A stretch of 64,000 nt of DNA, taken from the sequence record OQ555404.1, one strand, 5' to 3'. Numbering within the stretch: position 1 is the stretch's first letter; each line of letters begins with the position of its first letter. The notes under the pieces are model-generated. The model was given only the letters and a program-made list of their open reading frames with translations. It did not search any database and was not told where the DNA came from. The translations under genes and the position numbers were made by a program. Of this stretch, positions 3,388 to 35,780 are shown piece by piece. Source of the stretch: Escherichia phage vB_EcoP_HC-25922.

Positions 3388-3396
3388 TAATGTATA
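3388..3396 (+). promoter_or_regulatory. TAATGTATA promoter-like motif (candidate phage-sigma promoter)
   Basis: exact 9-mer 33 nt upstream of the ATG at 3430; same motif and spacing recur at 20077 and 35772. Confidence 0.45.
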
Positions 3397-3429
3397 TTCT
3401 TTGTCTACATACAACTAGGAGGACAATCT

Positions 3430-4182
3430 ATGGCTATGCCAGACGTTCAGAACCCAATTAATACCTACGGATGGCTTAAGAAGGCTGTGTCCCTCTGGGC
3501 CGACCGTGATGACCCTGAATTTGTTAATCAGATTCCGAACTTTATTAACTTTGCAGAAAAGGAAATCTATCGTAATTTACGTATTCCTCCTTTGGAAAAA
3601 GAAGTATACTTAGATATTAAAGATGGTGTGGCTTTTATTCCACCAGACTATTTAGAAGCTCAGTGGATGATGAGAGCCAAAGATGGCACAATCTTCCAAG
3701 TAACCTCTCCTGAAGAGATTAGCTATCGTAGACAGCATGGAACAATTAACCCATCTCACTGGAATAACCAACCTGTCAACTTTGCTCGTTTCGGTAGTCG
3801 TTTCATTTTCTACCCTAGCATCGAAGCAGATACCCCGTACTACCCTGATGATGGAAGCCCTTTGATTCCAGCAGAAAACTCAGTGATTCTTAGCTATTAT
3901 GCAGACCCACCGGAATTCCATGAAGATACAGATACTAGTACTATTCTTACTATAGCACCGGAACTTCTTCTGTACTTCACCCTACGTCATGCTTGTCTCT
4001 TTGTTCAAGATGATAATGGTGTTCAGAAATGGTCAGCATTAGGAAAAGCTATCCTTGATGAAATGGTAGAACAGAATAAGAAACAAGAGTACTCAGGTTC
4101 ACCTATCGCAATTCCGAATAACATGACTCGACTTCAGAGCAGCTTGCCTGATATTTATGGTATTCGTACTTCTCGTGTATAA
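3430..4182 (+). CDS. virion structural protein (putative adaptor or tail tubular protein)
   Basis: 250 aa ORF with AGGAGG RBS, first gene after the capsid terminator/promoter; function inferred from position only. Confidence 0.35.
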   Translation: MAMPDVQNPINTYGWLKKAVSLWADRDDPEFVNQIPNFINFAEKEIYRNLRIPPLEKEVYLDIKDGVAFIPPDYLEAQWMMRAKDGTIFQVTSPEEISYRRQHGTINPSHWNNQPVNFARFGSRFIFYPSIEADTPYYPDDGSPLIPAENSVILSYYADPPEFHEDTDTSTILTIAPELLLYFTLRHACLFVQDDNGVQKWSALGKAILDEMVEQNKKQEYSGSPIAIPNNMTRLQSSLPDIYGIRTSRV

Positions 4183-4191
4183 GGAGATAAT

Positions 4192-6552
4192 ATGATCGTT
4201 TATAATAACCAAGCACCTGATGCAGTGAATAACGTTGGGCAGTTTGGTGCTACTGAAGGCTCTATTGGAGCTTATAAGCAAGCCGCAGAATATGCAGCTG
4301 ACTCCAAATATTGGGCACTGTTAGCAGAGTCTAAGTTTGGTACAATTGATGACCTGATCGCTGAAGTAGAACGTTTGTATCAGCAAGGTGTTCTGATGAA
4401 GCAGGATATCGAAGATCTTAAGCAGGACTTTAAAGATCAAGATGCTCGTCTGATGAGTTTGATTGCTCAAACTAACGCAGCGGTATCAGATGCGAATAAT
4501 GCTGTAGCTCTAATTAATCAGAAACTTATTGAAGTCCAGAACCAGCTTGACGTTCTGTTAGGAATGTCCGTTGATGTAACCACACTTCCTCCGGGAACTC
4601 CGGCTACTGGTTCTTTTAATCCTAACACTGGTGTAATTTCTTTAGGTATCCCAGAAGGCGAACCCGGAAAGGATGGTTCTGTTAAGGATTTAGACACAGC
4701 TCCTACTGGTGTTCCAGAGCTAGGTGACTTGGGTTTCTATGTTGATAAAGATGACAATACCGTCCATAAAACTACTCTAGAGAATATTGCTAACTTAATC
4801 CCATCTGTTCGTTCTGTTTCTGTTAATGGGGGACCAGCTCTTGATGGAGAGGTTGCTCTAACAATCAACAAAGAGACAGTAGGTTTAGGAAATGTTCTGA
4901 ATGTTGCTCAGTACAGTCGTCAAGAGATTAATGACAAATTTGACAAAACTACCAAGACATACCAATCAAAAGCAGAAGCTGATGCTGACGCTCAGTATCG
5001 TCAAGTTGGTGAGAAAGTCTTAGTCTGGGAAGCTACTAAGTATGAGTTCTACACTGTTGCTGCTAACAAAACATTAACTCCAGTTAAAACTGAAGGTAGA
5101 ATTCTTACCGTTAACTCCCGTTCTCCAGATTCCAGTGGTAACATTGACATTACCATTCCAACAGGAAACCCTTCTCTGTATCTTGGTGAGATGGTGATGT
5201 TCCCTTACGACCCATCTAAGAATATCTCCTACCCAGGAGTTCTTCCTGCTGATGGTCGTCTGGTATCAAAAGAATCTGCTTCAGATTTAGGCCCATCCCT
5301 TGTCAGCGGACAGCTCCCTGTTGTTTCAGAAACTGAATGGCAATCGGGGGCTAAACAGTACTTCTCTTGGGGCAAGTTAGCAGACGGTATTACCGATGCG
5401 GATTCTACTAATTTTATCAACATTCGACTCCCTGATTGGACTGGAGGGGAGGCAATAAGAGCACCAGATTCTGATAAAGACTCTCAGTACAATGGGTCTG
5501 TACAGGCTCAGAAACCTTATGTTGTTACTGTAAATAACCAAGCTCCTGATGAGATTACTGGTAATGTGAACATCTCCAGATCAATTTTAGGTGCTGCTTC
5601 TTCTGGAGCAAACTCTGACATTACATCTTTATCTGGACTCACAACACCGCTATCCATCTCTCAAGGTGGTACTGGAGCTAAAAATGCTGCTAGTGCCCGA
5701 TCTAACTTGGGGTTGGGGAGTGTTTCCACTCTAGATAACGTCCCTATCGCTAGTGGTGGGACAGGGGCTGGAGATGCTGCTGGTGCAAGGTTTAATCTTG
5801 GGTTAGGTAACTCAGCCACAATGAATACCGGAACTAACAGTGATAATGTTCTTAAGGTTGGTGATTTTGGAATTGGAAGACCTGACGGCGCTCTTGTTTT
5901 TGATACTACTTCACAAGACCAACTTCTTGCTGGACTTGACACTTATGGGTTGTGTGTGTTTAGGAATAACCAACAAATAGCAGCACCTTGGGACATATGG
6001 AACTACTCCTCAAACCTTTTCTTTAGGGCGGGTGACACATACAGTATGATAAGTATTCCGTTTGAGTCTGCTGGTAAGATAAAAGTTTTTGGTGGTGCAT
6101 CGGGCAGTGGGTGGAAAACCTCAAGGACGATATACGATACTATAAATACAACTGTTGACGTCAATGGCTTTATTAAAGCAGCGTCACCAATAGTTAAGGT
6201 ATTTCATGACGGAAGTTTTGAAACAAATGAACAATCTGATGGAGTTAGTGTTAAGAAAATCTCCACCGGGGTTTATTTAATTTCAGGGTGTCTTGGTCTT
6301 AATTCTGATGCAGGATGGGGTGGGGTAGATGGAGGTTTTGAAATCCCAATAGACCGAAACAAACAACCTAGAGTCTGGCTGGATTATGAGATTAAAGAAG
6401 ATGGTTCTATTTTAGTTAAAACTTATCACAGAATCCATCCAACCTCTCCGGTTTTTGCTAGAAATGAGATAGAAGGTTTCTCTGACGGCGATCCTATTGA
6501 TATCCCGAGTGATGCTTTTATCTCAGTTCGTGTTGAAATGCCATCCAAATAA
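4192..6552 (+). CDS. tail fiber protein
   Basis: 786 aa; C-terminal part has repeated GGTGA...AR.NLGLG tail-fiber-type repeats. Confidence 0.5.
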   Translation: MIVYNNQAPDAVNNVGQFGATEGSIGAYKQAAEYAADSKYWALLAESKFGTIDDLIAEVERLYQQGVLMKQDIEDLKQDFKDQDARLMSLIAQTNAAVSDANNAVALINQKLIEVQNQLDVLLGMSVDVTTLPPGTPATGSFNPNTGVISLGIPEGEPGKDGSVKDLDTAPTGVPELGDLGFYVDKDDNTVHKTTLENIANLIPSVRSVSVNGGPALDGEVALTINKETVGLGNVLNVAQYSRQEINDKFDKTTKTYQSKAEADADAQYRQVGEKVLVWEATKYEFYTVAANKTLTPVKTEGRILTVNSRSPDSSGNIDITIPTGNPSLYLGEMVMFPYDPSKNISYPGVLPADGRLVSKESASDLGPSLVSGQLPVVSETEWQSGAKQYFSWGKLADGITDADSTNFINIRLPDWTGGEAIRAPDSDKDSQYNGSVQAQKPYVVTVNNQAPDEITGNVNISRSILGAASSGANSDITSLSGLTTPLSISQGGTGAKNAASARSNLGLGSVSTLDNVPIASGGTGAGDAAGARFNLGLGNSATMNTGTNSDNVLKVGDFGIGRPDGALVFDTTSQDQLLAGLDTYGLCVFRNNQQIAAPWDIWNYSSNLFFRAGDTYSMISIPFESAGKIKVFGGASGSGWKTSRTIYDTINTTVDVNGFIKAASPIVKVFHDGSFETNEQSDGVSVKKISTGVYLISGCLGLNSDAGWGGVDGGFEIPIDRNKQPRVWLDYEIKEDGSILVKTYHRIHPTSPVFARNEIEGFSDGDPIDIPSDAFISVRVEMPSK

Positions 6553-6562
6553 ATTTAAGGAT

Positions 6563-6582
6563 GCCCTCTTCGGAGGGCTTTA
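6563..6582 (+). terminator. possible weak terminator
   Basis: hairpin GCCCTC-TTCG-GAGGGC followed by TTTA. Confidence 0.3.
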
Positions 6583-6595
6583 TGGAGGATTATAA

Positions 6596-8791
6596 ATGTC
6601 TAGAGAATTAATGCCCAAATCTGGGATAATGATGCCTCACGTGGTAGTTACTAGAGATGCCGCAGTTGTGGGTGTGTCTACAGTTGATGGCGTGGCAGGT
6701 GCTGTTAATTTAACAGATAAATATCTACAAAAGTCTGATGCTGAAGCAACATATCAAACGAAAGCAGAAGGGGCTACTAAGCAATATGTAACCGATGCTA
6801 TTAACCCTATTATGACAAATGCTCTGTTTAAAGATGACCCTTTTGTCAATAATGATACACCTATCCGCTCTGGTGGTGGTAACGGTGTTGAATCGGTAGA
6901 CATGATTAAAGTCACTCCTGAGAATAATATCAAACTGGGGAGCTATGCTTCTTCTGTTCAGGGGGTTGAGATTCATTCTGCTGGTCGTCTTCAGGTTGTT
7001 GATCAGAACGATTCTGGAGTCGAAACTAAATACCCGATATACTCCAAAAGGTATCGCCCGGAAGTTGAGGATTTACCTTTCGCTTCAATCGGTTCCTACG
7101 TCAAAGATTCCAAAGGACGCACTATTGGTGTAACTCGTACTGGTATCAACTCTGATATCAAACAACTTACCCAGAAGGTAACTTTCACTCAACCCGTTAC
7201 TGTTCCTGATGCAGTTGGTGATTATGATGCGGTTACTTTGAGACAGCTTCGAAACAGCGGTGGTGGTTCTGGTGGTCCTACAATGAGTGGAATTTCTAAC
7301 TTTGGGATTGGGGATTTTCATTTACGTGACAGCCGTGCTTTCATCCCAGCTTTTGAGGTAGTGTCTGATGGGCAGCTTTTGAATCGTGCTGACTACCCAG
7401 ATCTGTGGGCTTATGCACAATTATTGTCGCCTATAGAGGATTCAGAGTGGCTTTCTGACAAGTTTAAGCGTGGTCGGTACAGTACGGGGGATGGTACTAC
7501 AACCTTCCGTGTACCTGACAGAAACGGCATTCAGGCTGGTTCTGTACGCGCTCTATACGGTCGTGGTGATGGTGGGTCCAGTTCTGCTAACGGAGACATA
7601 TTCGAATCCGCCGCACCAAACATCTGGGCGCGGACGGCAAGCTACTCCGGTTCCAGCTATGCACAGGTTTTTGGTGATATAGCGCAGGGTGCCTTCGTAG
7701 CGGATAACACGCTGTTCCCTGCTGCTGCTGGTGATGCTATCCCAGATACAGGCGCAATCGCTATCTCTGGGCGCTATAACACACTGACCTTTGACGCATC
7801 TCGTTCAAGCCCTATTTATGGCGGGTCCGTTGATGAGATTATGGGTCGTAACTTTGTAGGTGTTTGGACTATCCGTGCTCATGGTGGTTTTACTGCTGCT
7901 AACACCTCTTGGTCTGTTATTAACAGTGATGCAAACCGTCCTGCTGGTGGAACTAGGGTAACTAGCGGTTCAGTTGTTTCTGAATATAAAATAGGTTCAG
8001 AAGTAGAAGCCTCTACTACGCTCCAAACTGATGCTTATATCGACGGAGCTTATTATGGGATTATCAATGTTTATAATAAAACCAAAGGAGTTACCAAGCA
8101 ATTAGCTTTTGACGATTCTGGAACCCTGAACTCTGATAGATATGTTGCTCGGTCTAGAACATTGATGTCTTGGAATGAAACAGGAAGTCGCAGAGGGACG
8201 TTTTCTATAGACAACCAAGGGGTTGGTGCTAACTACTCTTTTAACTCTATACTGAGTGCTTCCCAAGCATCCCAAGGTGGATACAAAACTACTACCCATG
8301 TAGGGATGATTCACAATGATGCTGGATCTTTTGCTGATTCCTGTTGGCATGTTTCGGGAGATGAAGACAACAAATATGGTTGTCGTTTAACTCTCCGACC
8401 AAACAGGAACGAGATTTACTACTACACTTGGCAGCCAAGTTCAACCGGAACTTATACTCTTGCTATGAATCCTGTATCTGATGAAAAGTTGAAACATAAC
8501 ATCCAAGATATCTCTCCTGATGAAGCAATTCGTGCGATAAAAGGTTTGGATTTCAAATCGTTTGTGTACAACAATGATAATCAAGGAAGAACTCGTCGTG
8601 GTATCATTGCACAGCAGGCAGAGAAAGTTGAACCTCTTTATGTTAAAACTCGTAAATTCCATGACAACGATGGGGTAGAGCAGGAACAGAAAGAGTTGGA
8701 TGCAACTCCAATGCTTTTAGATACCATACAGGTTGTTCAAGATCTGCTGAAGCGTATTGAAGTTCTAGAAGCGAAGTTAGCAGAGAAGTGA
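6596..8791 (+). CDS. tail fiber/spike with tail-collar motif and C-terminal intramolecular chaperone (peptidase S74-like) domain
   Basis: YPDLWAYA...TFRVPDRNG collar-like motif; C-terminal SDEKLKHNI...GIIAQQ segment with Ser/Lys(+5) dyad typical of autocleaving fiber chaperones. Confidence 0.55.
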   Translation: MSRELMPKSGIMMPHVVVTRDAAVVGVSTVDGVAGAVNLTDKYLQKSDAEATYQTKAEGATKQYVTDAINPIMTNALFKDDPFVNNDTPIRSGGGNGVESVDMIKVTPENNIKLGSYASSVQGVEIHSAGRLQVVDQNDSGVETKYPIYSKRYRPEVEDLPFASIGSYVKDSKGRTIGVTRTGINSDIKQLTQKVTFTQPVTVPDAVGDYDAVTLRQLRNSGGGSGGPTMSGISNFGIGDFHLRDSRAFIPAFEVVSDGQLLNRADYPDLWAYAQLLSPIEDSEWLSDKFKRGRYSTGDGTTTFRVPDRNGIQAGSVRALYGRGDGGSSSANGDIFESAAPNIWARTASYSGSSYAQVFGDIAQGAFVADNTLFPAAAGDAIPDTGAIAISGRYNTLTFDASRSSPIYGGSVDEIMGRNFVGVWTIRAHGGFTAANTSWSVINSDANRPAGGTRVTSGSVVSEYKIGSEVEASTTLQTDAYIDGAYYGIINVYNKTKGVTKQLAFDDSGTLNSDRYVARSRTLMSWNETGSRRGTFSIDNQGVGANYSFNSILSASQASQGGYKTTTHVGMIHNDAGSFADSCWHVSGDEDNKYGCRLTLRPNRNEIYYYTWQPSSTGTYTLAMNPVSDEKLKHNIQDISPDEAIRAIKGLDFKSFVYNNDNQGRTRRGIIAQQAEKVEPLYVKTRKFHDNDGVEQEQKELDATPMLLDTIQVVQDLLKRIEVLEAKLAEK

Positions 8792-8795
8792 GATA

Positions 8796-9099: not shown

Positions 9100-9132
9100 T
9101 TGACCTAAAATAACAACAAAAGGAGGTCAAAG

Positions 9133-10440: not shown

Positions 10441-10449
10441 GGAGGAATT

Positions 10450-20051: not shown

Positions 20052-20076
20052 TCTAAGACCTAAGTCCTATCTCTTA

Positions 20077-20085
20077 TAATGTATA
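20077..20085 (+). promoter_or_regulatory. TAATGTATA promoter-like motif
   Basis: exact 9-mer 36 nt upstream of the ATG at 20122. Confidence 0.45.
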
Positions 20086-20121
20086 TAGGAGGTAGGACAT
20101 TTTTATTTATAAGGAGACGTT

Positions 20122-23100
20122 ATGGCTAATTTAAAATCGTGGGAAGAAGCTTCCAAAGCTCCTGCGTATCTGAACGCCTCTCCAGAGCAACAGGCTCAAA
20201 TGAGAGAACAATACAAGGCAGCAGGGGGCACTATTCCTGAGACTCAACCACAAGAGCAACCACAACAAGAAGAACGAGGTGCTATTGGGGAGTTTGCTCA
20301 AGGTGTGTCTAACGCTCTTCAATCAGGTGGTGCTAACATTGCAGCTAGTGCTGCTAAAGGTTTAGGTGGGCTGGTAGAGATTGGTGAAAACCTAACTGGT
20401 TCGGAAACAAGCTATGGTAAGCGCATTCAAGAGAACTCTAAGCAATTGCTGGAAGAACGCTTATCCAAGATAGAAGATGGTTTTGGTAAAACAGCTGGTC
20501 AGTATGCTGGTGTTGCTGCTGATATCGGTTTGACAGTTGCAAACCCTGCTGTTGCTGCTGCTGTGATTGCAGCTCGTGAAACAGGTCGTGCTTATGCTGA
20601 TCAAACTCCTAAAGAAGATGAAGATAAATCAGTTTTAGATGCCGCTCTTGTTGGTGGCGCTAACTACGCTGCTCAGAAGATCCTTCCGGGCATGACTGGT
20701 ACAGCTTCTACTACTCTTGGTCGTGTAGGACAAAGCGTAGCCTCTAACGCAGTTGCTGGTGCTAAGGGTGGTGCTATTGTAGGTGCTGCTGAAGCTCAGA
20801 ACAAATATGGGGATGATACTACTCTCGCTAACGTCTTAGAAGGGGCTATTGAAGAGGGTGCACTTGGTGCTGCTTATGGTGGGGCGATTGGTGGAGTTCA
20901 TGGGTTAATAAGCCGTCCTAGCCCTCAAGTGTTTGATCGTACTCCTGAGCATGTTAAGACTGACATTGCTGCTGAAGATGAGGCTATTCGTAAAGCTACT
21001 AACGCTGATGAACTTCGTGAAGCCTATGCTAAAGCTGAGAATGCTAATGCTGCCTCTGCTTTAAACCTTCTGGATGAAAATGGTTTCCGAATCACAGATG
21101 CAGTTGCTATGGACTCTCCTGCTGTTCAGCGTATTTTAAATACAGACCAAAGCCGCGCTGAGAAGGCTGCTACGGTTCAGAAAGATAGCTCTAATGTTCC
21201 CGGTCTCAATCCTCTCGCTTCTCCTAAGAAGACTCAAGGTAAAGCTTTTGCTGACAATGAGTACAACCAGAAACAAGCTGTGGCAATGAAAGATGCAATG
21301 GCTGACTACACTAAAGATAACACCAAAGCCCTTACTGATGTTCTAGACAACCTAGACCGAGAGTTAGTAGCTCTGAGAGCAAGTGGTGATTTTACTGGTA
21401 GTGCTATTGACATTAAAAACCGTACTCAAGCTGATCGTGATTTTATTGATGCTTATAAAACTTTTTACAGTGAAGCTAATCGTTTCAAAGCTCGTGATGG
21501 TGAAGACCTAAACAACTTCATTGATAAAGCTACTCAGTTGCAGAAGCTCTCTGAAAATGTTTCTCCAGAAATGAAGAAGGCCATTGGTGGATTAAAGAAA
21601 CTAAAAGGTATGCCTGAAGGTTTTAACCCTATCCAAGATGCTTTCACTCTGAATAATACAGCTAAGTTCATGAGTAACCAAGACCGTGGTTGGACCTCTC
21701 TGACTGATGACGGTTTTCGTGAAGCTCCGGCTCCTGTGTTAGTTAAGAATCCTCTCGGTGCAGCCAAGTATGTACTTAACCGCTTTACTTCCGATCGTGC
21801 TCGTGCTCAACGTGAGAAGCAACAGTCAGCTAATAGTGAAGCTATCCGCTCTTTGGCTAGGGCTGATTTAGAAGTACAACGAGCTAGGACTCAGGCTGAA
21901 GAAGCAAGAGCAAAAATGGAAGAAGAACCAACCACAGAAGACATCAAATTCCGTACTCAAAATGATGCACCTTCCGAACCGGTTCGTGAGGAGCCTTCTG
22001 CTACTACTGTGACGGAAGAAATTCCTTCCTCTCCAGCTCCAACTGAAACACCTCTTACTGCGAGGGATTTGGTTGCTCAAAGACGTGCTCTCCAACAAGC
22101 AGAGCTTAGACGTCAAGAAGCTGAAGCTGCTCAGGCTCAAGAAAGTGCTACACCAGAACCTGAACCACAGCAAGAAGCTCTTACAGCTAGAGAATTAGTA
22201 GCTCAGCGTAGGGCTGTAGCAGAGGCTAAGAAACGTCAAGAGGCAGAAGAAGCAGAACGTGCTAAAGAAGCTCCTAAGGAAGCCGTAGAAGAACCTAAAG
22301 AGAAACCTGAGCCATTACCTGCTCGTGCTCCTAAAGCTCCTGAGAAGGCTCCTGAGCCTGTTAAACCGTCACTTGGTGTAGAGCGTCTAGCTTCTATGTC
22401 AACTGCTGCTCGTCAAGCAACGAAAGACCGTGCTGATCGATTTGCTCGTTCTTTGTATTCGGCTGCTGCTAAAGCTAAAGCCACTGCGGAAAATTTCCTT
22501 TCTTACAAGGGAGATCCTAAAGAGCTTATGCGTCGTATCCGTCAGGAAGACCAAGCAAACAACACACAGCGTCATGAAGAGATGGCTAGAAACCAACTAG
22601 CTTCACAGCAAGGCATTGCTTCTGCTAAATCTCAACATGTTCGTGCTTCTTTTGCTGATTGGGTGAAAGAACGTGGGTTGCCTTCTGATATTGCTACTAA
22701 GGCTTTACGGGCTGAAGAGAAAGGTTTAGGTGGGAACGTCACAAGTCTAGATTCACTGAAGCGAAGAGCTGAGCGTTTATATCAGAAACAAAGAGATGAT
22801 GAGTTTGACCGTCTCTATCGAGAGGCTCTGGAAGAGAATAAAGCTTTTGATAAGAGAGATGCTCCTAAACTGGTAGACCAGAAGAAAGAGCTTCAGGATG
22901 AAATTGGTGCGTTGCTTGATGCTGAACCATTACGTCCTGCTCAGAAAGATGCTATGCGTAGGATTATGGAAGACTTCGTGGAGAGTAAGTTTAAATCTTC
23001 AGAGAGAGCTGGAAGGGTTGAGGCTTTGGAAGTTGGTCAGATGAAGGATGTGTGGGATGGGTTTATTAATACCTATAACCGAGAAGTTAACATGTTCAAC

Positions 23101-24567
23101 AAGGCTAACAAGAATTCTCAATACGAAGCAGCAGCTAAACACTTGCAAGCACGTCAAGAACGTCTTGAGACGCTCCGTAACAGAGCTAAGGCTCGCAGTG
23201 ATGCTAAGGCAGCCATGGAGGCTGAGAAGCAGTCCTTGGAGGCTATAGCGGCTCAGAAATCAGAGATAGAGAAGATGTTCAAAGAATTGCCTGAAAGTGT
23301 CAGAGAGGCTCAGGAAGGGCGTACTTTGAAACAGCTTGCTGCTCACCATGATAAGAACTCTCCAGTACCACCAGAGCGTTTCCGTAGTATCATTGAACGT
23401 ATTCACAACGCTGAGAGTGATTACCTCGATCGCAAACGTCGTTTGACCGAAGCAGAGGAAGATGCTCGTGAAGCTAAGTGGAATAGGATGTATGAACAGG
23501 CTGAGGAAATGAACCGTAAGTTTGATATCGATGCTAGAGTGAAGAGAGATAAGGCTCTGAAGGAAGCTCAAGAACGAGAGAATGACTTAATGGCAGTTCA
23601 ACGTCAGCGTGACGACATTCATAAGCGTTTGGTCAATACTCTGGAAGAGAAGGGAGTTTCTAGAGAAGATGCTGAAGCATATGCTGGGTCTTACATGGAT
23701 AATCGGTATGCTTTGTTAGAGAAACCAATGACTCCAGTGGAACATCAGAATGCTCGTGCTCGTATCGAATCTGACGTAGAGAAGTTTGTTAAGAAATACG
23801 AAACAGCTACTCCAATCGAAAGAGAGATTGCTAAAGCAACTGGTGATGCAGATGGGAAACCTTCTGACTTAGATGCAGAAACATTAAAAGCTATCGAAGA
23901 TGCTCGTAAAGTTGATTCCGATTTTAAGAAACTCTTAGATGAAGAGAAGGAAATGGAGAAGATTCGTTCAGCTCTACCTGAAGATGAAAGATCTCAGGCG
24001 AACTCTGATATTCTGGAAAGTATTAAGAAACAGGAAGATGATTTTGCTAGCAAAGCAGAGAAAGCTTTTATTGAAGGGAAGGACTTGCAGGAGTTAGCGA
24101 GTGTTGCAGAAGTTCTAGATAGGGTTCATGGTGCAGACAAGGCTGGTAACAACCGTCGATTTGTACGTGCTCTACAGACTGCTGCCGAGAACAAGAAACG
24201 TTATGGGGATAATCCAGTGGCTTGGTTTAGTGCTGATGATTATTCTGCTATTGCGAAACTTGGTGCTGCTTCGGCAGGTGGTAACAAATCTCGAGCACTT
24301 GAGAAGATCTTTGGTTCTACAGCAGAACAAGCTAAAGGGAAACTTTTAGGGCGGGATGATGTAGCTAAGATTAGACGTGTGATTGAAGCGAATCCCAATG
24401 TTAAGATTCCTTCTTACAAGACAACTACTCGACAAGAGTACATGCAGTTCTTGGAGAAGTATAATGACGAGGGAGAGTTGAAAGTCAAACGTGGTTCTCT
24501 GTCTGACAAGTTGGAGAGAGGTAAGCGTCAAGCTAAACTCCGTGTTAGAGTTCGAGCTAAGGAGTAA
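20122..24567 (+). CDS. large internal virion/ejection protein (1481 aa)
   Basis: A/E/K/R-rich helical protein with an internal tandem repeat (LTAR[DE]LVAQRRA...); last gene of the plus-strand module. Confidence 0.5.
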   Translation: MANLKSWEEASKAPAYLNASPEQQAQMREQYKAAGGTIPETQPQEQPQQEERGAIGEFAQGVSNALQSGGANIAASAAKGLGGLVEIGENLTGSETSYGKRIQENSKQLLEERLSKIEDGFGKTAGQYAGVAADIGLTVANPAVAAAVIAARETGRAYADQTPKEDEDKSVLDAALVGGANYAAQKILPGMTGTASTTLGRVGQSVASNAVAGAKGGAIVGAAEAQNKYGDDTTLANVLEGAIEEGALGAAYGGAIGGVHGLISRPSPQVFDRTPEHVKTDIAAEDEAIRKATNADELREAYAKAENANAASALNLLDENGFRITDAVAMDSPAVQRILNTDQSRAEKAATVQKDSSNVPGLNPLASPKKTQGKAFADNEYNQKQAVAMKDAMADYTKDNTKALTDVLDNLDRELVALRASGDFTGSAIDIKNRTQADRDFIDAYKTFYSEANRFKARDGEDLNNFIDKATQLQKLSENVSPEMKKAIGGLKKLKGMPEGFNPIQDAFTLNNTAKFMSNQDRGWTSLTDDGFREAPAPVLVKNPLGAAKYVLNRFTSDRARAQREKQQSANSEAIRSLARADLEVQRARTQAEEARAKMEEEPTTEDIKFRTQNDAPSEPVREEPSATTVTEEIPSSPAPTETPLTARDLVAQRRALQQAELRRQEAEAAQAQESATPEPEPQQEALTARELVAQRRAVAEAKKRQEAEEAERAKEAPKEAVEEPKEKPEPLPARAPKAPEKAPEPVKPSLGVERLASMSTAARQATKDRADRFARSLYSAAAKAKATAENFLSYKGDPKELMRRIRQEDQANNTQRHEEMARNQLASQQGIASAKSQHVRASFADWVKERGLPSDIATKALRAEEKGLGGNVTSLDSLKRRAERLYQKQRDDEFDRLYREALEENKAFDKRDAPKLVDQKKELQDEIGALLDAEPLRPAQKDAMRRIMEDFVESKFKSSERAGRVEALEVGQMKDVWDGFINTYNREVNMFNKANKNSQYEAAAKHLQARQERLETLRNRAKARSDAKAAMEAEKQSLEAIAAQKSEIEKMFKELPESVREAQEGRTLKQLAAHHDKNSPVPPERFRSIIERIHNAESDYLDRKRRLTEAEEDAREAKWNRMYEQAEEMNRKFDIDARVKRDKALKEAQERENDLMAVQRQRDDIHKRLVNTLEEKGVSREDAEAYAGSYMDNRYALLEKPMTPVEHQNARARIESDVEKFVKKYETATPIEREIAKATGDADGKPSDLDAETLKAIEDARKVDSDFKKLLDEEKEMEKIRSALPEDERSQANSDILESIKKQEDDFASKAEKAFIEGKDLQELASVAEVLDRVHGADKAGNNRRFVRALQTAAENKKRYGDNPVAWFSADDYSAIAKLGAASAGGNKSRALEKIFGSTAEQAKGKLLGRDDVAKIRRVIEANPNVKIPSYKTTTRQEYMQFLEKYNDEGELKVKRGSLSDKLERGKRQAKLRVRVRAKE

Positions 24568-26361: not shown

Positions 26362-26950
26362 AGAGTTCTCTCCGTGTCCGTACAACAATCCAGTTTAAAT
26401 AATCTACTGCATCTTCTACAGTAGAATTATTCGCTAGGTAGTATGTATTTCTCTGACTGCCTTCAATGTAGGAACGAGAATCTCCTTTAAAATCACAACC
26501 TTCACGAATCACCTGAATTACCTGAACATGGAAATGTTTCTCTAGTTCTTCAACTTCGGCTTTGAACCCACCATCAGAGAAGACGATAACATCATTCTGT
26601 GATGGGATACGTTGTTGAATACTGCTAACAGCAAGTTTACCCATGCAGGTCTCACCAAACATAGGTTTCAGGTAATCCTCACTAGTTGCAATCATCAAGT
26701 CTCGAACTGACTTACCGTCCCATTCAGGACGGCTATGTTCTTTCCACTCACGGTCGTTGTACAGCTCCATGAACTCATAAAGAGGTAGACCTAATGCAGC
26801 AGCAGCCACTCGATATATAGGCTCCTTAAAAGCCTTTACATGCGGCCTAAACTCGGTGTTACCAAGTGTTTTCTCTAACCAAGAATTAGCGATTGTATCT
26901 TTACCACAACCCGGTGGTCCATTCAGAATTACTACTAATGGTTTACTCAT
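26354..26950 (-). CDS. P-loop kinase, dNMP kinase-like
   Basis: GPPGCGKDT P-loop resembling the T4 gp1 SGKDT signature. Confidence 0.45.
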   Translation of the reverse strand: MSKPLVVILNGPPGCGKDTIANSWLEKTLGNTEFRPHVKAFKEPIYRVAAAALGLPLYEFMELYNDREWKEHSRPEWDGKSVRDLMIATSEDYLKPMFGETCMGKLAVSSIQQRIPSQNDVIVFSDGGFKAEVEELEKHFHVQVIQVIREGCDFKGDSRSYIEGSQRNTYYLANNSTVEDAVDYLNWIVVRTRRELYV

Positions 26951-27600
26951 TATTGAATCATCCCTTGAAGATCTTCTTTATCAAAGTGCTTCTCTACTAC
27001 CGCTTCATACAGATCACGATTCTCTGAATAACGACGATAGAAGGTTCCGTGTGAAATTCCCAACTCTTGCTGGATGTGATCATGTGGGATGCCGAGAAAG
27101 AGCATTGAGAACATGCTTGCCATCTTACGGTTTTCCATAATGTCACTCAGGTCTTGGAAGAAGAAAAAGATTCTAGATTCCAAGAACGGGTCTCCAGTAG
27201 AATCATGCTTATCCATCGCAATCTCTAAAGGACTTTCCCATGAATTCATCTCAGGAGGTCTAAACATATCAGCCTCTGGAATAGAGTAGATACGTCGGTC
27301 TCCAACTGTCTGGCGATTAGAACGAATCGACCAGATGATATTCTTGACACGATAAGTCATGTGCTCAATATCTTTTTCATCAGTGAGCAGAAGTTCTTCT
27401 TGCTTTGCAAACACAAAACGCCAAGCGTTCAGTAATACTTCCTGAGCAACATCCTCTGCCTCGTGATAGTCTTTAATGTCATACATAAAATACTTATGCA
27501 CAACTTTCCAGTTCTCTCGATAAAATTCATCGAAGGTTGGATAATATTTAATAGGAATGCCATGAATACGATAGCGTGTGGGTGTTGTCTTCTTCTTCAT
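26950..27600 (-). CDS. ECF-like sigma factor
   Basis: [14 protein letters not shown] resembles sigma region 2; C-terminal [22 protein letters not shown] resembles a region 4 helix-turn-helix. Confidence 0.5.
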
Positions 27601-28397: not shown

Positions 28398-29138
28398 TTA
28401 GAAAGGGCTGTCATCTTCTTCAAAGGTAGACTGCGGCTCTTCGTTAATAGTAGGGATACTTGGAGTAGCATCTTTCTGTTCAGTATCAGAAGCTTTAGTA
28501 ACTTCACGACCAGCCAGAGGGATGTTCTTAGCATCATTAGCTTGGGTCAGAAGATTACGTTGGAATGGGAAGATTGCTTGATAAGCAGCCAAGTTAGCAT
28601 CAGTCTCAGCATACGGTTCGAAGAAGATCAACTCACTACGAGGGGCACCTACAGCATCACGATATTTGGTAGGGATTGGAGTGATACTCTTAATGGAGTT
28701 TTTCTTCTCACCAGCTTTGTTTACATAGGAATTAACCAGAATGTTAACAGGCTGACCTAGCAGCATATCTTTAAACCAACCCAAATCACCTTTCAGTGCT
28801 TGAACACTTGGGTCGATCATTTTGATCAGATTCAGAATACCAGAGTTCTTAGCTCGTGGGTTTACGTCGAAAGTTTTAAACTGGCAAGCAGGACGAGGGT
28901 CCAGAGGTTTGCCTTCATTATCAGTCCCTGTTGCATCCACGCCAATCAGTTCAAAAGCCAAGTCCATACGGAAAGCTGGGTTCTTAGGAGTAACTGCTTT
29001 AGTCTTAGGGTCAATCCAAGGGTCACGATTGTGAACACCTAAACCTACAACACGAACAATACGTGCTTCGTACTCACCATCAGGGATTACATCGTAGTTG
29101 GATTTACGGGATACAGACAGTTCAGGGATCATAGACAT
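28398..29138 (-). CDS. single-stranded DNA-binding protein (T7 gp2.5-like)
   Basis: 246 aa with acidic C-terminal tail ending in Phe (EEDDSPF). Confidence 0.45.
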   Translation of the reverse strand: MSMIPELSVSRKSNYDVIPDGEYEARIVRVVGLGVHNRDPWIDPKTKAVTPKNPAFRMDLAFELIGVDATGTDNEGKPLDPRPACQFKTFDVNPRAKNSGILNLIKMIDPSVQALKGDLGWFKDMLLGQPVNILVNSYVNKAGEKKNSIKSITPIPTKYRDAVGAPRSELIFFEPYAETDANLAAYQAIFPFQRNLLTQANDAKNIPLAGREVTKASDTEQKDATPSIPTINEEPQSTFEEDDSPF

Positions 29139-29556
29139 ATTAATATTTCCTTATATAAATTTAAGATTGTTGCTCTCTTTGAGCGGTTTGTATACTATAT
29201 ACATTACACTTATACAGATAAGGTTCTATTATACTATAACCTTTTTGGTAGTAGATAATAACAAATAGTAATGTATATATATGGTATAGCTAGTAAAGCT
29301 ATTGCAGGCTTGTATATTGGGCAATTCATAGAATCCCTTGCAAGTACCGAAGGGCAGGAGCCACCTGCGAGATAAAAATAGAGAATTAAGGAAATCCTTG
29401 ATTTAGGTTGTAGGGACTCCTAGGGACTTTGATTCTCTATTTAAAAGAATATTAATTACTTACTACCTAAATAATTAACTAACTTACTTAAACCAAACTC
29501 AAGAATAATAGATAAAAAGATTATTCCTAAGAAAGCTAAAAAGTAAAGGATATAAG
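29139..29556. promoter_or_regulatory. 418-bp AT-rich noncoding region with divergent TAATGTATA motifs, palindromes and direct repeats
   Basis: no ORF of 60 aa or more; TAATGTATA on minus at 29198-29206 and on plus at 29269-29277; inverted repeat AAATAGAGAAT/ATTCTCTATTT; direct repeat TAGGGACT x2. Confidence 0.4.
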
Positions 29557-29686
29557 TTACCATTCAAGTAAACCTTTAAAGTTAGTTTGTTCTACTATCC
29601 TCTGATAATGAAGATTAGAATCAGCTTGTTTCTTTAACATCTCATTATATTTATCTCTGATAGAGTCTTTATAAACTACAGGTTCT

Positions 29687-30208
29687 TTAAATAATGAGAT
29701 CTTGTTCTTTTCTTCTTTCATCGAAAACCTTCCTAATCTCTTGCAGAGAAACAGCTTTATAATTAATTTGCTCCATTGATGTACAGAAATATCTCCAATC
29801 ATCAATTACATGATTATGGGTATGAGCATAAATATTAAACTTCCCTCTCATTTCATCAGTGTGAATAGGAATATGAGTTACCCAAAACTCTTTATATTTA
29901 TAATCACCAGAGATTCTACGGAAGACTTTCATCATATCAGGGAGAAGTTCTAACCTGTCATGGTTTCCTAAGACTAGATGCTTCTCTCCTTTTACTTCAG
30001 CGATGATATCAAGGGCATACTTTTCAAACACCCAATCACCGGTAAAGAAAGTTTTATCACGTTTAGTAACATGGTCAAACGCTGCTAAGATAGCGTTGTC
30101 GTGTTCTTCAATACTACTAAACCTCTTCCTAAAGCTACAGATGTTACGATGGCCTAGGTGACCATCACCTGCAAAATAAACTTCAGCCATTCTCGTATGT
30201 GTCCTCAT
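29687..30208 (-). CDS. metallophosphoesterase (calcineurin-like)
   Basis: GDGHLGH, GNHD and HTHNH motifs. Confidence 0.65.
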   Translation of the reverse strand: MRTHTRMAEVYFAGDGHLGHRNICSFRKRFSSIEEHDNAILAAFDHVTKRDKTFFTGDWVFEKYALDIIAEVKGEKHLVLGNHDRLELLPDMMKVFRRISGDYKYKEFWVTHIPIHTDEMRGKFNIYAHTHNHVIDDWRYFCTSMEQINYKAVSLQEIRKVFDERRKEQDLII

Positions 30209-31662: not shown

Positions 31663-31679
31663 ATTAGCCTCTTAGACAA

Positions 31680-31701: not shown

Positions 31702-31946
31702 TATTTATTCTGTGTTTCCAGTTCGCTGATACGAACTTTCAAACCGTTAATCTCAGCCTGAGCAGCTTCTAGTTTAATTAGGGCTTCTTCAGCGTCAGCT
31801 TCTGTTTGAAGAACCGCAGTGGTTAGTTCGTATAAAGCTTGGCGGAGAGAGTCTTTGCCCATAGCATGAATCTGTGCAACAAAGAATTGCTTACCTTCCG
31901 TGGTTTCCAAAGTCTCTTTTAATTCTTTAGATGTTAAAGTCATCAT
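31701..31946 (-). CDS. coiled-coil protein
   Basis: 81 aa helical ORF. Confidence 0.35.
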   Translation of the reverse strand: MMTLTSKELKETLETTEGKQFFVAQIHAMGKDSLRQALYELTTAVLQTEADAEEALIKLEAAQAEINGLKVRISELETQNK

Positions 31947-32110
31947 TACTCCCTTTCATAAATTTTAAGAACTGTACCGCCATCTGCTTCAATCTGAGCA
32001 ACTACTTCATCGCGCTCTTTATCAGAATAAACCAGTTGGTTGTGAAATTTGCCTGTACTGTCTTGGAAATATACATTCCATTTTGGAGCAGGTTTACGAA
32101 TCAAATCCAT
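31944..32110 (-). CDS. small protein (55 aa, below ORF-track cutoff)
   Basis: MMDLIRKPAPKW... with GAGGAG RBS; stop overlaps the next start (TAATG). Confidence 0.3.
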
Positions 32111-32325
32111 CATTGATCTTTCTCCTCTCGTTCAACCCATGTACGGAAAAGCTCCCCATACACTTTGGCATCATCAAAACGTCCTTCTTCCTGTGCGAGT
32201 TTTTGTTGCTTCAAGCACCATTCAGAACTTTTTACTTCTTCCACTTCCTTGTCTCCTTAAAAAGAACTAATCAATAAGACTAGTTCATTTCGTAATACGA
32301 TTCAGCTCTTCCACTGAACTAATCA

Positions 32326-32637
32326 CTACTTCTCCACCACAAAGAGGTTAACTTCAATGAAAGTTTCGTATTGTGTTGACTCCTGCTTACGGGTGTAGTA
32401 GAAATGACGACCTTCTAATGCACCTCCGTACTGAGTGGCACATCTTTTAACCATCTCTTTTATCACATCTACAACTGATTCGCCTTTCCACGGACGTAAC
32501 CCCTGAGTTGGGACTTTTGCTGTACAGGTTACTTGTGTGTAACCTACATCTTGTAGAGATATCTCAAGAATCAGCTTTGCCCAAGCATCAAAATTAAGCT
32601 TGGGGTTATATTTAACTTCAGTTTTGATATCAATCAT
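32326..32637 (-). CDS. hypothetical protein
   Basis: 103 aa ORF directly downstream of the DNA polymerase gene. Confidence 0.4.
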   Translation of the reverse strand: MIDIKTEVKYNPKLNFDAWAKLILEISLQDVGYTQVTCTAKVPTQGLRPWKGESVVDVIKEMVKRCATQYGGALEGRHFYYTRKQESTQYETFIEVNLFVVEK

Positions 32638-34484
32638 TAGTGAGTATGATTCCAGTTTAATCCAATCTTACAATCTGATGCAAGAGGACATTCCATCTTG
32701 AGGTATTCCCCTGCTTTACGAACACATTCTTCAGTGAGGGTACGAAGTTTGTTAACATCATCACGATGTACAGTGAACTGTCCTTCATCATGCATGTCAA
32801 TAACCTTCGCACAACGAACACCATCCCGCTCAATCCATTTATTGAGGAATAGCATTGCATACTTCATAACAATCGCCCCAGCGCTCTGTAAGAGTGTATT
32901 TAAGGCTTTATGGACCATAACCTTTCCAGTTGCATCTCTTCTCATTGTAATACGACGTCCATCCACACCGTAGATATATCCACTTTGCGCTTTCTCTGTC
33001 ATACGTTCAATAAGGATTGCAATACAAGGGTTCTCTGCTAAGAATCTTGCTCTCATGATAGCCCCTTCGTCAGAGCCACCACCTACAATACTTCCTAACT
33101 TAGCGTCACCTGCCCCATAGTTAAAGGCATAGATAAACGTTTTAGCATTATCACGAGTAGGAAGGCCAGCAAGTTTTTGGTTATGTGAGTGAATATCTCC
33201 TTCTAAAAGAATATCTCTATACATAACAGCAGAAGCTAGACCACGTTCAGCTTCTCGTTTCTTAGCCGGGTTGTTTTCTCGCTCTGCTTCAGCGAGCATC
33301 TCACGACATTCTTTAATAAGGTAGTGAGCTAGCATCCTCAGCTCAAGACCAGAGCCATCGTAACCTAAGAAGATTTCACGACCAGCAGGAACATAGAACT
33401 TATAGGCACCTACGGGTTTGTCTTTCTTGCCCGGTTTTCCCACTTCGTAGATAATGTTAGTACCCTTTCGTACGTAACACCCATCAGGGATATGGTTGGT
33501 AATGATGAAAGGATGGTTATGACTATCGTCTGAGGAATAGTCAGATTGAAAAAGACTGCGGCACTCGTGACCAAACAAACCGCGAGAAGGAATATTAACA
33601 ACAATGCGATGTTTAAAACGAAATGTCGGAGTAGCGCAGCTATTAGCTTCGGCGGACAACTTACCATCTTTACGTTCCTTGTCGATAAGCCCGCTAATCA
33701 AACCTAGCCTGTGAGCCGCTACAACGCGTCTCTTAAGCAAACTTCCTACACCCCCTAGCTCACCCCCAAGCCCCTCTTCAAGAGTCTCCTCAAGGTTTGT
33801 AGGGGCTGTGGGCCACTTGTTTGATGTAGCCAAAGCTTTTTTGATTTCATCAAAGGTTACAGGTTTCTTCCTATTCGGATTAAGACCTAAACCACTGACG
33901 TAGGCTTTCATGTAGTTGACAGTGTGATAACGGAAATGTTTATCCAAAAATCTTCGGATATCAGCATCTATCATCTCCGCTGTCTGTTTCTCTTTAGCAT
34001 TACCTCGAATCCAAGCAGAATACCATGCAGAGTATGTACCATACTTCTTCATAGCTCTACGGATTTCAAATGTATTCCAAGGTTTCTTAGAATAATTCCA
34101 CTCTGGAGGTATGAAGCCCTCATCCATCAAGGCTTCTTTAATACGTGCATCTTTCGATGGGTCGAAGTCTACATACTCAACGCAAGTAAACGCCCCACCG
34201 ATATCTTCTCTTTTAAGACCAACCCTATCGCAATAGAGCTGAGGCCACTTCTGTAAAGCACCTGATTTCTTAAAAGGCTTAGCATAAGTTGAACCATCCA
34301 CCCGCATTTTAGGGAGGAGAGGAATCAGTTCTTTATCAATATTGACAATAATCTCTTTGAGAAGGTGAACAAACCACCGAGCGTTTCTTCTGTTGAAGTT
34401 GACTCCATGCTTCGCTTGTTTTGAGATTATATCAGCGACTGTCATCTCCGTTATGAAAGGTAACTTATCAGGGTTATCCATCAC
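32637..34484 (-). CDS. DNA polymerase, family A, polymerase domain only
   Basis: motif A GYDGSGLELR, motif B RDNAKTFIYAFNYG, motif C VIDMHDEG; no 3'-5' exonuclease motifs in this 615-aa ORF. Confidence 0.8.
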   Translation of the reverse strand: MMDNPDKLPFITEMTVADIISKQAKHGVNFNRRNARWFVHLLKEIIVNIDKELIPLLPKMRVDGSTYAKPFKKSGALQKWPQLYCDRVGLKREDIGGAFTCVEYVDFDPSKDARIKEALMDEGFIPPEWNYSKKPWNTFEIRRAMKKYGTYSAWYSAWIRGNAKEKQTAEMIDADIRRFLDKHFRYHTVNYMKAYVSGLGLNPNRKKPVTFDEIKKALATSNKWPTAPTNLEETLEEGLGGELGGVGSLLKRRVVAAHRLGLISGLIDKERKDGKLSAEANSCATPTFRFKHRIVVNIPSRGLFGHECRSLFQSDYSSDDSHNHPFIITNHIPDGCYVRKGTNIIYEVGKPGKKDKPVGAYKFYVPAGREIFLGYDGSGLELRMLAHYLIKECREMLAEAERENNPAKKREAERGLASAVMYRDILLEGDIHSHNQKLAGLPTRDNAKTFIYAFNYGAGDAKLGSIVGGGSDEGAIMRARFLAENPCIAILIERMTEKAQSGYIYGVDGRRITMRRDATGKVMVHKALNTLLQSAGAIVMKYAMLFLNKWIERDGVRCAKVIDMHDEGQFTVHRDDVNKLRTLTEECVRKAGEYLKMECPLASDCKIGLNWNHTH

Positions 34485-34497
34485 CCACTCCTTATAG

Positions 34498-34851
34498 TTA
34501 TTGGTATATTAAGTCTGTGAATGCTTGGTTGTCTTCAACAATATCTAAAGCTTCATATGAATCAGCCAATTCATCCACATAAAAGACTGCTGGAATATCT
34601 TCTGCTCGCTGTCTACGAGATTCCCTTTGTTCATTGATATTTCTTTGAACCTGTGCAAGTTTCATACCCCACACCTGCTCATACAACTCTGGATATTTGT
34701 CACTAACCACTACATAATTTCGAGCTGGTTGGTTTCTATTAATCTTCGCTGTCAACTCAATAAACTGGCGAAACTCTTGAATAGAGAGGTTGTCATGAAT
34801 ATTATCCCATTTGAGAACGCAGTGACGTTCTAGGCGTTGAGGTACTGGCAT
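34498..34851 (-). CDS. hypothetical protein
   Basis: 117 aa ORF. Confidence 0.4.
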   Translation of the reverse strand: MPVPQRLERHCVLKWDNIHDNLSIQEFRQFIELTAKINRNQPARNYVVVSDKYPELYEQVWGMKLAQVQRNINEQRESRRQRAEDIPAVFYVDELADSYEALDIVEDNQAFTDLIYQ

Positions 34852-34854
34852 AAC

Positions 34855-35112
34855 TTACTCCACTGTCGGGAATGGTTTTAGGTTGTTCATGGCTGTACGA
34901 ACATCAGCACAGATTTCAGGATCACGATAAGAGAGGAATTTACCATCCTTACCACGAATCATTACATTAGTCCGTGCTGTTTTATTAGGCAATAAAGAAA
35001 TCCCTCCAATAAGATGGTTGGTAGGGTGTTGTCCTTGATTAACCTTGTAGTCATGAGTCTGAGCGTCACCGTTAAAGAGATGATCACGAATTTGGATTAA
35101 GCTAATCTTCAT
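34855..35112 (-). CDS. small protein, paralog of 35114-35365
   Basis: shares TARTNV..RG.DGKF.S.RD....NLKPFP with its neighbour. Confidence 0.4.
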   Translation of the reverse strand: MKISLIQIRDHLFNGDAQTHDYKVNQGQHPTNHLIGGISLLPNKTARTNVMIRGKDGKFLSYRDPEICADVRTAMNNLKPFPTVE

Positions 35113-35113
35113 A

Positions 35114-35365
35114 TTATGCACCAAAGTTAGGGAAAGGTTTCAGATTTTCAATAGACTTAGCAATACGCTTAGGAACAGCCTTATCACGGAAGGAGATGAA
35201 CTTTCCATCAGGACCACGAAGGGCTACATTAGTACGAGCTGTTGTTTTGTTAAACTGAATCATCTCAACAGAGCTTGTAACATTTTCTACAGGAAAAGTA
35301 TAGCTCTCAGTTGTGTTCAGAGAAGGGAGGAAATCAGTTACAGTGATGTAAGTTACTTTAGACAT
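35114..35365 (-). CDS. small protein, paralog of 34855-35112
   Basis: same motif; start set at MSKV with AAGGT RBS. Confidence 0.4.
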   Translation of the reverse strand: MSKVTYITVTDFLPSLNTTESYTFPVENVTSSVEMIQFNKTTARTNVALRGPDGKFISFRDKAVPKRIAKSIENLKPFPNFGA

Positions 35366-35386
35366 ATTTATTACCTTAGGTTCTAT

Positions 35387-35416
35387 AAAAGAAAAGGCCA
35401 CCCGAAATGGGTAGCC
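35387..35416 (-). terminator. rho-independent terminator (minus strand)
   Basis: minus-strand GGCTACCCA-TTTC-GGGTGGCC followed by TTTTCTTTTAT. Confidence 0.55.
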
Positions 35417-35421
35417 TTATA

Positions 35422-35739
35422 TCAACTTGAGCTTAAAGCTCCTTTGCGACCGCCTGCTGATTTTCCAGCACGATCTCCACTTTTGCCGCCGTTCGAGCGA
35501 TTTCGAGAGACTGATTCAACACGTAAGTTACTTGACGCATTAGAACCTCCCGACTTGATTGATCGTTTGTGTCCAACATCTTTACCTCGGACAGCAGCTT
35601 TTCCATCGCGCTTTTCAACGATGCGACGTGCACGGTGGCGCTGAGCATCTCCGCTCTTGCTACCAACGCCGGTCTCACCCCTTGCGATTGCAGTTCTTCG
35701 TTCTTGTGCATAATCACGTTTCGCCTTATCGTTCATCAT
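35422..35739 (-). CDS. basic Gly/Lys/Arg-rich low-complexity protein (KGG-repeat-like)
   Basis: ATG with AAGGAG RBS 4-5 nt upstream; preferred over the overlapping GTG-initiated frame 35433-35717. Confidence 0.4.
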   Translation of the reverse strand: MMNDKAKRDYAQERRTAIARGETGVGSKSGDAQRHRARRIVEKRDGKAAVRGKDVGHKRSIKSGGSNASSNLRVESVSRNRSNGGKSGDRAGKSAGGRKGALSSS

Positions 35740-35771
35740 AACTCCTTAATATATCAGTGTACACTAAGGAG

Positions 35772-35780
35772 TATACATTA
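35772..35780 (-). promoter_or_regulatory. TAATGTATA promoter-like motif (minus strand)
   Basis: plus TATACATTA; 32 nt upstream of the start codon at 35739. Confidence 0.45.

Follow-up and report, generated by a model that had tools for sequence, protein, structure and literature searches.

The 64,000-nucleotide (nt) stretch of Escherichia phage vB_EcoP_HC-25922 analyzed here (sequence record OQ555404.1; hereafter the window, numbered from its first letter) carries several copies of a short motif, TAATGTATA (consensus tAATGTAtA), which is almost certainly the -10-like core of middle and late promoters read by a phage-encoded gp36-type sigma factor together with the host core RNA polymerase. 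This main finding is already known, as it is the described gp36 promoter set of phiEco32-type phages, found here in a phage of the SU7/MLP3 type. One further copy on the plus strand, designated Pplus, is considered below as a candidate promoter of its own. The presence of the motif, its statistics, the orthology of its positions and the degree to which the two proteins and their contact residues are conserved were obtained here. The biochemistry was taken from the literature on phiEco32 only, and by homology we infer that it carries over to the phage of the window.

An exhaustive search of the window reproduced the five exact copies of TAATGTATA that had been reported, by eye, in an earlier reading of the sequence (the original prediction), where 0.61 copies would be expected by chance; none of 100 dinucleotide-preserving shuffles contained five or more. 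All five copies were located in intergenic DNA (P ~6e-6, with an intergenic share of ~9% of the window taken from a crude gene map) rather than at background frequency inside coding regions. Matches with one mismatch were not enriched as a whole (24 observed versus 18.7 expected), and therefore the signal is confined to the exact motif and one specific variant. A position weight matrix (PWM) trained solely on six published phiEco32 promoters ranked six intergenic sites at the top of the window, namely 20077, 29206, 35780 and 3388 (17.2-17.3; 17.2 at 3388), 40390 (13.8) and 29269 (13.3), and 12 of the 14 hits ranked next were intragenic. The six sites were as follows:

3388-3396, plus strand: -10-like element of the P13 orthologue (late); exact motif, 33 nt before the gene-13 homologue (3430-4182), with the same position and flanks at 9101 in phiEco32.
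20077-20085, plus strand: -10-like element of the P26 orthologue (late); exact motif, 36 nt before a gene of 1481 amino acids (aa) (20122-24567).
29198-29206, minus strand: -10-like element of the P40 orthologue (middle); exact motif, 59 nt before the gene-40 homologue (28398-29138).
29269-29277, plus strand: -10-like element of Pplus, a putative seventh promoter of gp36 type; exact motif, divergent from P40 and without a downstream gene.
35772-35780, minus strand: -10-like element of the P58 orthologue (middle); exact motif, 32 nt before the gene-58 homologue (35422-35739).
40382-40390, minus strand: -10-like element of the P68 orthologue (middle), AAATGTATA, recognized by the PWM and by orthology, 37 nt before the gene-68 homologue (40015-40344).

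The by-eye list thus contained every exact site and overlooked the P68 orthologue, which lies beyond the range covered by that reader. The three start-codon distances that it gave (33, 36 and 32 nt) were correct, and its description of the motif as standing at a fixed distance upstream of genes held for four of the six sites (32-37 nt), the P40 orthologue at 59 nt and the plus-strand site with no gene behind it being the ones that did not conform.

The statement, also made in the original prediction, that a similar motif had been reported for phiEco32-type phages proved correct, the consensus being published. Six phi32_gp36 promoters have been mapped in front of the middle and late genes of phiEco32, sharing the single consensus tAATGTAtA with transcription start sites 6-8 base pairs (bp) downstream (Lavysh et al., 2022, PMC8948821), and comprise the late promoters P6 (TAATGTAgA), P13 and P26 and the middle promoters P40, P58 and P68 (aAATGTATA) (PMC8948821 Table S3). 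The mapping of Pavlova et al. (2012) was used here as summarized in PMC8948821 and PMC4281155. Matching sites occur at the expected places throughout the phages of the phiEco32 subgroup (PMC8948821) and have been predicted in NJ01, ECBP2, KBNP1711, SU10 and 172-1 (PMC8948821, PMC4281155), with an identical set of six promoters in the SU10 genome paper (PMC4281155). In phiEco32 itself, exact TAATGTATA was present five times with flanks as in the window, before genes 13, 26, 40 and 58 and on the plus strand at 36704, and AAATGTATA preceded gene 68. Four of the five exact window sites were accordingly positional orthologues of P13, P26, P40 and P58 with conserved flanks, and P6 falls to the left of the window. 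The strands were arranged in the same logic, the plus-strand sites at 3388 and 20077 heading late structural operons and the minus-strand sites at 29198, 35772 and 40382 heading middle operons for replication and nucleotide metabolism. The P26-type site was kept down to relatives with 47% sigma identity. The annotated 'promoter' features of SU7 were generic sigma-70-type predictions and uninformative on TAATGTATA, and a literature search for a transcriptome study of phiEco32-like phages found none.

Both phage proteins required by the phiEco32 system were encoded in the window:

26950-27600, minus strand: phage sigma, homologue of phiEco32 gp36 (80% identity; PDB 9m7y chain F, E = 1e-117).
46877-47122, minus strand: gp79 homologue (76% identity by tblastn; PDB 9m7y chain G, E = 4e-37), starting with GTG at 47122 or ATG at 47119.

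The open complex of RNA polymerase, gp36, gp79 and P68 has been characterized by cryo-electron microscopy and mutagenesis (Xu et al., 2025, PMC12276001; PDB 9m7y), in which gp36 adopts sigma2-like and sigma4-like folds with deviations. The sigma2-like N-terminal domain of gp36 forms hydrogen bonds with A-14, A-13, G-11 and the base opposite T-12, residues W90 and Y83 make stacking contacts at the fork junction of a bubble extending from -11 to +2, and the sigma4-like C-terminal domain touches -37G and -34A; mutation of the P68 bases A-14, A-13, T-12 and G-11 cripples the promoter (PMC12276001). The gp79 protein ousts sigma-70 region 4 and stabilizes the gp36 C-terminal domain, inhibiting the sigma-70 holoenzyme and co-activating the gp36 holoenzyme, which transcribes P26 with a four-fold and P68 with a three-fold stimulation by gp79 (PMC12276001). 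In the window sigma, the promoter-reading residues E79, H80, Y83, R84, W90, S91, S94, N95 and Y186/R187 were all retained, and the clamp-contact residues were conserved as well. The Pfam Sigma70_r2 profile matched it weakly (E = 0.0011, 19.1 bits, under the 24-bit cut-off) and region 4 gave no match; the ECF (group 4) label, which the original prediction had applied to this sigma as 'ECF-like', was also chosen by the depositors of PDB 9m7y, who named the gp36 chain 'ECF sigma factor'. The gp36 homology, the kept contact residues and the orthologous promoter positions thus well supported the proposal that the motif is the promoter element of the sigma encoded at 26950-27600.

By analogy with this structure, host core RNA polymerase equipped with the phage sigma would bind the TAATGTATA sites, the sigma2-like domain reading A-14, A-13 and T-12 as duplex and capturing G-11 as the first unpaired base. 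The DNA would open from -11 to +2, so that transcription would start 6-8 nt past the motif, and at some promoters the sigma4-like C-terminal domain would also touch the -35 region. The gp79 homologue would displace region 4 of the host sigma-70, turning off host and early transcription, and would brace the C-terminal domain of the phage sigma, stimulating its promoters. No co-variation between sigma and motif was demonstrable across the relatives: H80N sigmas (L017) still have exact TAATGTATA at P26, and in the most distant clade (L009-L011, H80N plus R84Q) each locus offers a single intergenic TAATGgATA and lacks a P26-type site, too narrow a basis for any conclusion.

Upstream of the -10-like elements, two classes of conserved element were recognized:

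3365-3373, plus strand: TAAGACCTA upstream element (-38 to -30) of the P13 orthologue, a 9-mer identical to and in the same register as that of P26, kept in close relatives.
20054-20062, plus strand: TAAGACCTA upstream element of the P26 orthologue, identical to and in the same register as that of P13, kept in close relatives.
29247-29257, plus strand: GGTAGTAGATA -35-region element of Pplus, an 11-mer shared with P68, having -37G and -34A.
40402-40412, minus strand: GGTAGTAGATA -35-region element of the P68 orthologue, the 11-mer shared with Pplus, having -37G and -34A.

Exact GGTAGTAGATA (-37 to -27) occurred only twice in the 64 kb, at P68 and at Pplus, in each case 22 nt upstream of the -10 T, and it provides the -37G and -34A contacted by the gp36 C-terminal domain in the P68 structure. 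P13 and P26 have A at -37 and the differing motif TAAGACCTA, which was found five times in the window, always on the plus strand (3365, 20054, 31590, 33881 and 58496; expected 0.75); no -10 element followed its three other copies (31590, 33881 and 58496) or the one-mismatch copies of GGTAGTAGATA. At P40 and P58, no conserved upstream element was found among the compared relatives. Class-specific elements of this kind, TAAGACCTA at the late promoters and GGTAGTAGATA at P68 and Pplus, might help explain middle versus late timing by one sigma.

Pplus is the sixth site in the window; with P6, which maps beyond the window, included, it becomes the seventh of the family. It is absent from SU10 Table S2 (PMC4281155) and PMC8948821 Table S3, and its phiEco32 orthologue at 36704 is not a mapped promoter. 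It faces away from gene 40 into ~280 nt without a credible open reading frame (ORF). The sequence TAATGTATATA was invariant in 13 of 14 distinct relatives, the exception being the metagenomic L026 with TAATATATA; the -35 block and the -10 element were otherwise fixed across these relatives while the 11-nt spacer varied freely, and both Pplus blocks remained even where the P40 side carries replaced DNA, as in ev_rybdy3 and the L006 type. The arrangement could be followed into the distant relatives L015 (GGTAGTG...TAATGaATA) and L017 (GGTGGTAGTG...TAATGTATt) and, in more degenerate form, L013. Pplus most likely works like the other gp36-type sites, and it would then yield a non-coding transcript of ~165 nt or longer, starting with a protective hairpin. 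The region entered by this predicted transcript contained the following features:

29286-29302, plus strand: hairpin at the predicted 5' end of the Pplus transcript (ATAGCT-AGTAA-AGCTAT), 5-6 bp, with covariation.
29349-29446, plus strand: invariant 98-nt non-coding core, with a small hairpin GCAGG/CCTGC (29354-29368) and a long 26-pair hairpin (29376-29442).
29456-29563, minus strand: 35-aa hydrophobic ORF, homologue of phiEco32 gp41 (MVTYILYFLAFLGIIFLSIILEFGLSKLVNYLGSK), conserved and convergent with the predicted Pplus transcript.

The 5' hairpin was represented by six variants in which 100% of the cells were paired, with the pair types UA/GC, GC/GU and CG/UA/AU. Its covariation score was reached by one of 500 shuffles and collapsed in slid controls, and the G.U pair of the commonest variant becomes an A.C mismatch on the other strand. 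The core showed a mean column identity of 96% over eight distinct versions, was found in all 98 GenBank phage records carrying the sigma, and in L015 was still 91% identical though the sigma protein was only 70% identical; such invariance suggests a constraint stronger than that on the surrounding genes. Because the core is invariant, no covariation was seen within it. On the plus strand, its long hairpin forms 26 pairs, six of them G.U, versus ~11 bp on the minus strand, and the core folds at -46.8 versus -37.4 kcal/mol, respectively. No counterpart of the core was matched in E. coli or other bacterial genomes, a search of Rfam 15 with both strands of 29100-29800 returned nothing better than E = 2 (all far below gathering scores), and scans of the plus-strand element for a tRNA or tmRNA, and of both its strands for a simple terminator, were negative. 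Matches to a covariance model of the core were confined to the phiEco32/SU7/L015 clade, with none in L013, L017, L019 or L009-L011.

The segment at 29303-29348 (plus strand), which links the 5' hairpin to the core, is represented by either of two unrelated modules when relatives (including L004, L006, L027 and L035) are compared, module A in the window and phiEco32 and module B in ECBP2, L006 and SDYTW1; the substitutions within module A fall in hairpin loops or re-register a small hairpin (SU7, TH43). Identity to phiEco32 at the Pplus locus was within the top 1.5% of windows. Since the neighbouring block is also highly similar, this identity could partly stem from recombination and is not decisive alone.

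Beyond the core, the 35-aa ORF occupies the second most AT-rich 100 nt of the window (81% AT) and is replaced in ECBP2 and the L006 type. As the AT-rich tract is a conserved small gene, the reading of the region purely as a T7-style replication origin was weakened, and the arrangement rather suggests convergent or antisense transcription. Taken together, we tentatively propose, at somewhat less than even confidence, that Pplus is an undescribed gp36/gp79-dependent promoter, conserved in phiEco32-like phages. Directed away from the middle genes and towards the small hydrophobic gene 41, it would produce a structured non-coding RNA specific to these phages, made up of the 5' hairpin, one of the two middle modules and the 98-nt core. 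Its RNA could be a stable regulatory RNA, a controller of the middle operon by antisense or convergent transcription, or a replication primer.

Several other explanations of these sites were weighed. That TAATGTATA is a functionless compositional accident might be argued from the AT-rich character of the intergenic DNA here and from the unenriched one-mismatch set, yet the excess of exact copies over the chance expectation and over every shuffle, their exclusively intergenic location, their orthologous positions with a motif invariant among phages whose flanks diverge, and the experimental validation of the phiEco32 promoters leave it a negligible probability; conservation and the literature have already refuted it. 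The original prediction had also listed a one-base-insertion variant, TAATAGTATA, before the capsid gene. The sequence is indeed present at 1368-1377 and is conserved in phiEco32 and SU7, and the validated P6 stands similarly close to its ATG. However, the inserted base breaks A-14/A-13/T-12/G-11, and with them the gp36 register, in any alignment; the PWM placed 20 or more other hits above it, and it is absent from SU10 Table S2 and PMC8948821 Table S3; and the upstream late promoter P6 can transcribe the capsid gene, with no terminator between. Its conservation is uninformative because the surrounding 40-nt spacer is conserved in full, Shine-Dalgarno sequence included. That TAATAGTATA gives the capsid gene a further gp36 promoter was therefore considered very unlikely and was rejected.

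The plus-strand site invites two further explanations. The -10 elements of Pplus and P40 form a perfect 12-nt inverted repeat 60 nt apart, and with no gene downstream and no place among the six published promoters, Pplus might be a mirror image of the P40 element that does not fire and is kept for a reason at the DNA level, such as a symmetric protein-binding site or as the by-product of a duplication. Such a mirror copy would have no need of its own -35 element, which Pplus possesses in the same form and spacing as P68; moreover, the spacer varies while both blocks stay fixed, the blocks persist where the P40 side has been replaced, and a hairpin with compensatory changes and plus-strand-only G.U pairs begins at the predicted start, so that we regard this explanation as improbable. 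Less improbable, but still unlikely in our judgment, is that the core at 29349-29446 serves mainly the minus strand or the DNA itself, as a terminator of the P58 middle operon before P40, a protein-binding site or an origin, with Pplus secondary, for example in priming replication. Consistent with this, the long hairpin is followed on the minus strand by UAUUUUUAU and on the plus strand only by UUU, and a terminator-then-promoter pattern is also seen at P13 and P26; invariance at the level of sequence, beyond pairing, suggests a binding site; and the second most AT-rich 100 nt lie just downstream in a phage that has T7-like replication proteins. On the other hand, the six G.U pairs that give 26 bp on the plus strand and ~11 bp on the minus strand, together with the more stable plus-strand fold, speak against this explanation, the simple terminator scan was negative on either strand, the AT-rich tract codes for the conserved 35-aa hydrophobic protein, and 98 invariant bases exceed the needs of a terminator. 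As UAUUUUUAU trails the long hairpin on the minus strand, the hairpin may also end the middle operon before P40.

Some observations weigh against the interpretation of the sites as gp36 promoters, and of Pplus as one of them. The start sites, the timing and the gp36 dependence in the phage of the window are all extrapolated from phiEco32. The structural -35 contact is known for P68 only, the upstream motif of P13 and P26 being different and none being conserved at P40 and P58. As for Pplus, no published or experimental support was found in the literature covered, which did not include the primary paper of Pavlova et al. (2012), and no convincing plus-strand terminator follows the core. In L026 (metagenomic contig ERZ1034915 NODE-75), Pplus carries G-11 to A (TAATATATA), a position at which mutation of P68 cripples transcription (PMC12276001); either a sequencing error or natural promoter loss may account for the change.

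Hairpins were also found next to three of the orthologous promoters:

3335-3356, plus strand: intrinsic terminator directly upstream of the P13 orthologue, from a terminator scan; 9-bp stem followed by TCTTGTTTTA, fold z = -3.1.
20064-20098, plus strand: terminator-like hairpin enclosing the P26 -10 element, from a terminator scan; 15 bp followed by ATTTTTATTT, fold z = -4.4.
35742-35771, minus strand: P58 leader hairpin CUCCUUAGUGUA...UAUAUUAAGGAG, which pairs the Shine-Dalgarno sequence of gene 58; fold z = -4.0, identical in phiEco32 and other relatives.

At P26, where terminator and promoter are compactly overlapped, all 15 pairs were kept, with several pair types, in six lineages down to 47% sigma identity, and the G.U pairs are valid on the plus strand only. 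The P26 transcript, starting 6-8 nt past the motif, would escape this terminator because its predicted start falls inside the 3' arm. RNAs initiated at P58 would likewise miss part of the 5' arm of the leader hairpin, and for this reason the translation of gene 58 might be open only on P58-initiated RNAs and closed on read-through RNAs. Some T4 late genes are under comparable translation control by a leader hairpin.

The window belongs to a phiEco32-like podovirus of the SU7/MLP3 type, with 97.8% identity to Escherichia phage MLP3 and ~97% to SU7, a lineage assigned to the genus Suseptimavirus of the subfamily Gordonclarkvirinae. The window is also collinear with phiEco32, and the 75% of it that could be aligned showed ~78% identity on average. 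In the block at 3339-5683, which holds the gene-13 homologue and the N-terminal portion of the tail-fibre gene, identity to phiEco32 reaches 92%, compared with 77-84% in the neighbouring DNA, and this difference suggests a recent recombinational exchange. ARAGORN found no tRNA gene in the whole window (1-64000); the tRNA-Arg of phiEco32 (66354-66427) adjoins a block collinear with window ~59292-59481. The phage encodes T7-like replication proteins (DNA polymerase and primase-helicase). In the L009-L011 clade (sigma ~54% identity), TAATGGATA (AAATGGATA in L009) replaces TAATGTATA before the gp40 homologue and precedes conserved non-coding DNA containing many TAGCTTAGCTTAGCTTTG/GCTAGCTTTGCTAG repeats (L009 5122-5271, L010 7380-7523, L011 7976-8121), and no intergenic promoter lies upstream of the giant late gene.

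The main result identifies which transcription units are middle and which are late in an SU7/MLP3-type phage and brings nothing new for phage biology; its usefulness lies in annotation and in the synthetic-biology use of the orthogonal gp36/gp79 system. If the proposal for Pplus is true, its RNA would give the phiEco32-like family its first non-coding transcript attributed to the phage sigma.

Compared with known systems, the window agreed most closely with phiEco32 itself, having the same motif (TAATGTATA, with AAATGTATA at P68) at the same five positions by orthologous genes, the same division of late and middle promoters between the two strands, a cognate sigma that is 80% identical, and a gp79 homologue. 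It differs in belonging to the SU7/MLP3 lineage, ~78% identical over aligned DNA; the plus-strand site is present in both phages (36704 in phiEco32) and is not among the published lists. In phage 7-11, a phage sigma (SaPh711_gp47) likewise directs the host core polymerase to late promoters (GTAAtg-N16-aCTA; PMC8948821), which occupy similar positions in a genome of related architecture. Its bipartite consensus is different, however, its sigma is only ~15% identical to gp36, and neither a gp79 homologue nor a middle gene class is present, and the promoters of the window are of the phiEco32 type, not of the 7-11 type. A further parallel, drawn by the authors of PMC12276001, is with AsiA/MotA of T4, in which a small phage protein also takes sigma-70 region 4 off the flap, turning host-type promoters off and phage promoters on. 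Whereas T4 remodels the host sigma, phiEco32-type phages substitute their own sigma, braced by gp79.

For Pplus alone, the primary origin of T7 offers a comparison, in which the phage promoters phi1.1A/B are followed by an AT-rich tract and the origin promoters prime replication. Resembling the T7 arrangement, the promoter-like Pplus site is directed towards an AT-rich region, and the phage has a T7-like DNA polymerase and primase-helicase. In contrast to T7, the AT-rich tract of the window is taken up by a small conserved gene of the other strand, and a structured, invariant 98-nt element stands between the promoter-like site and the tract.

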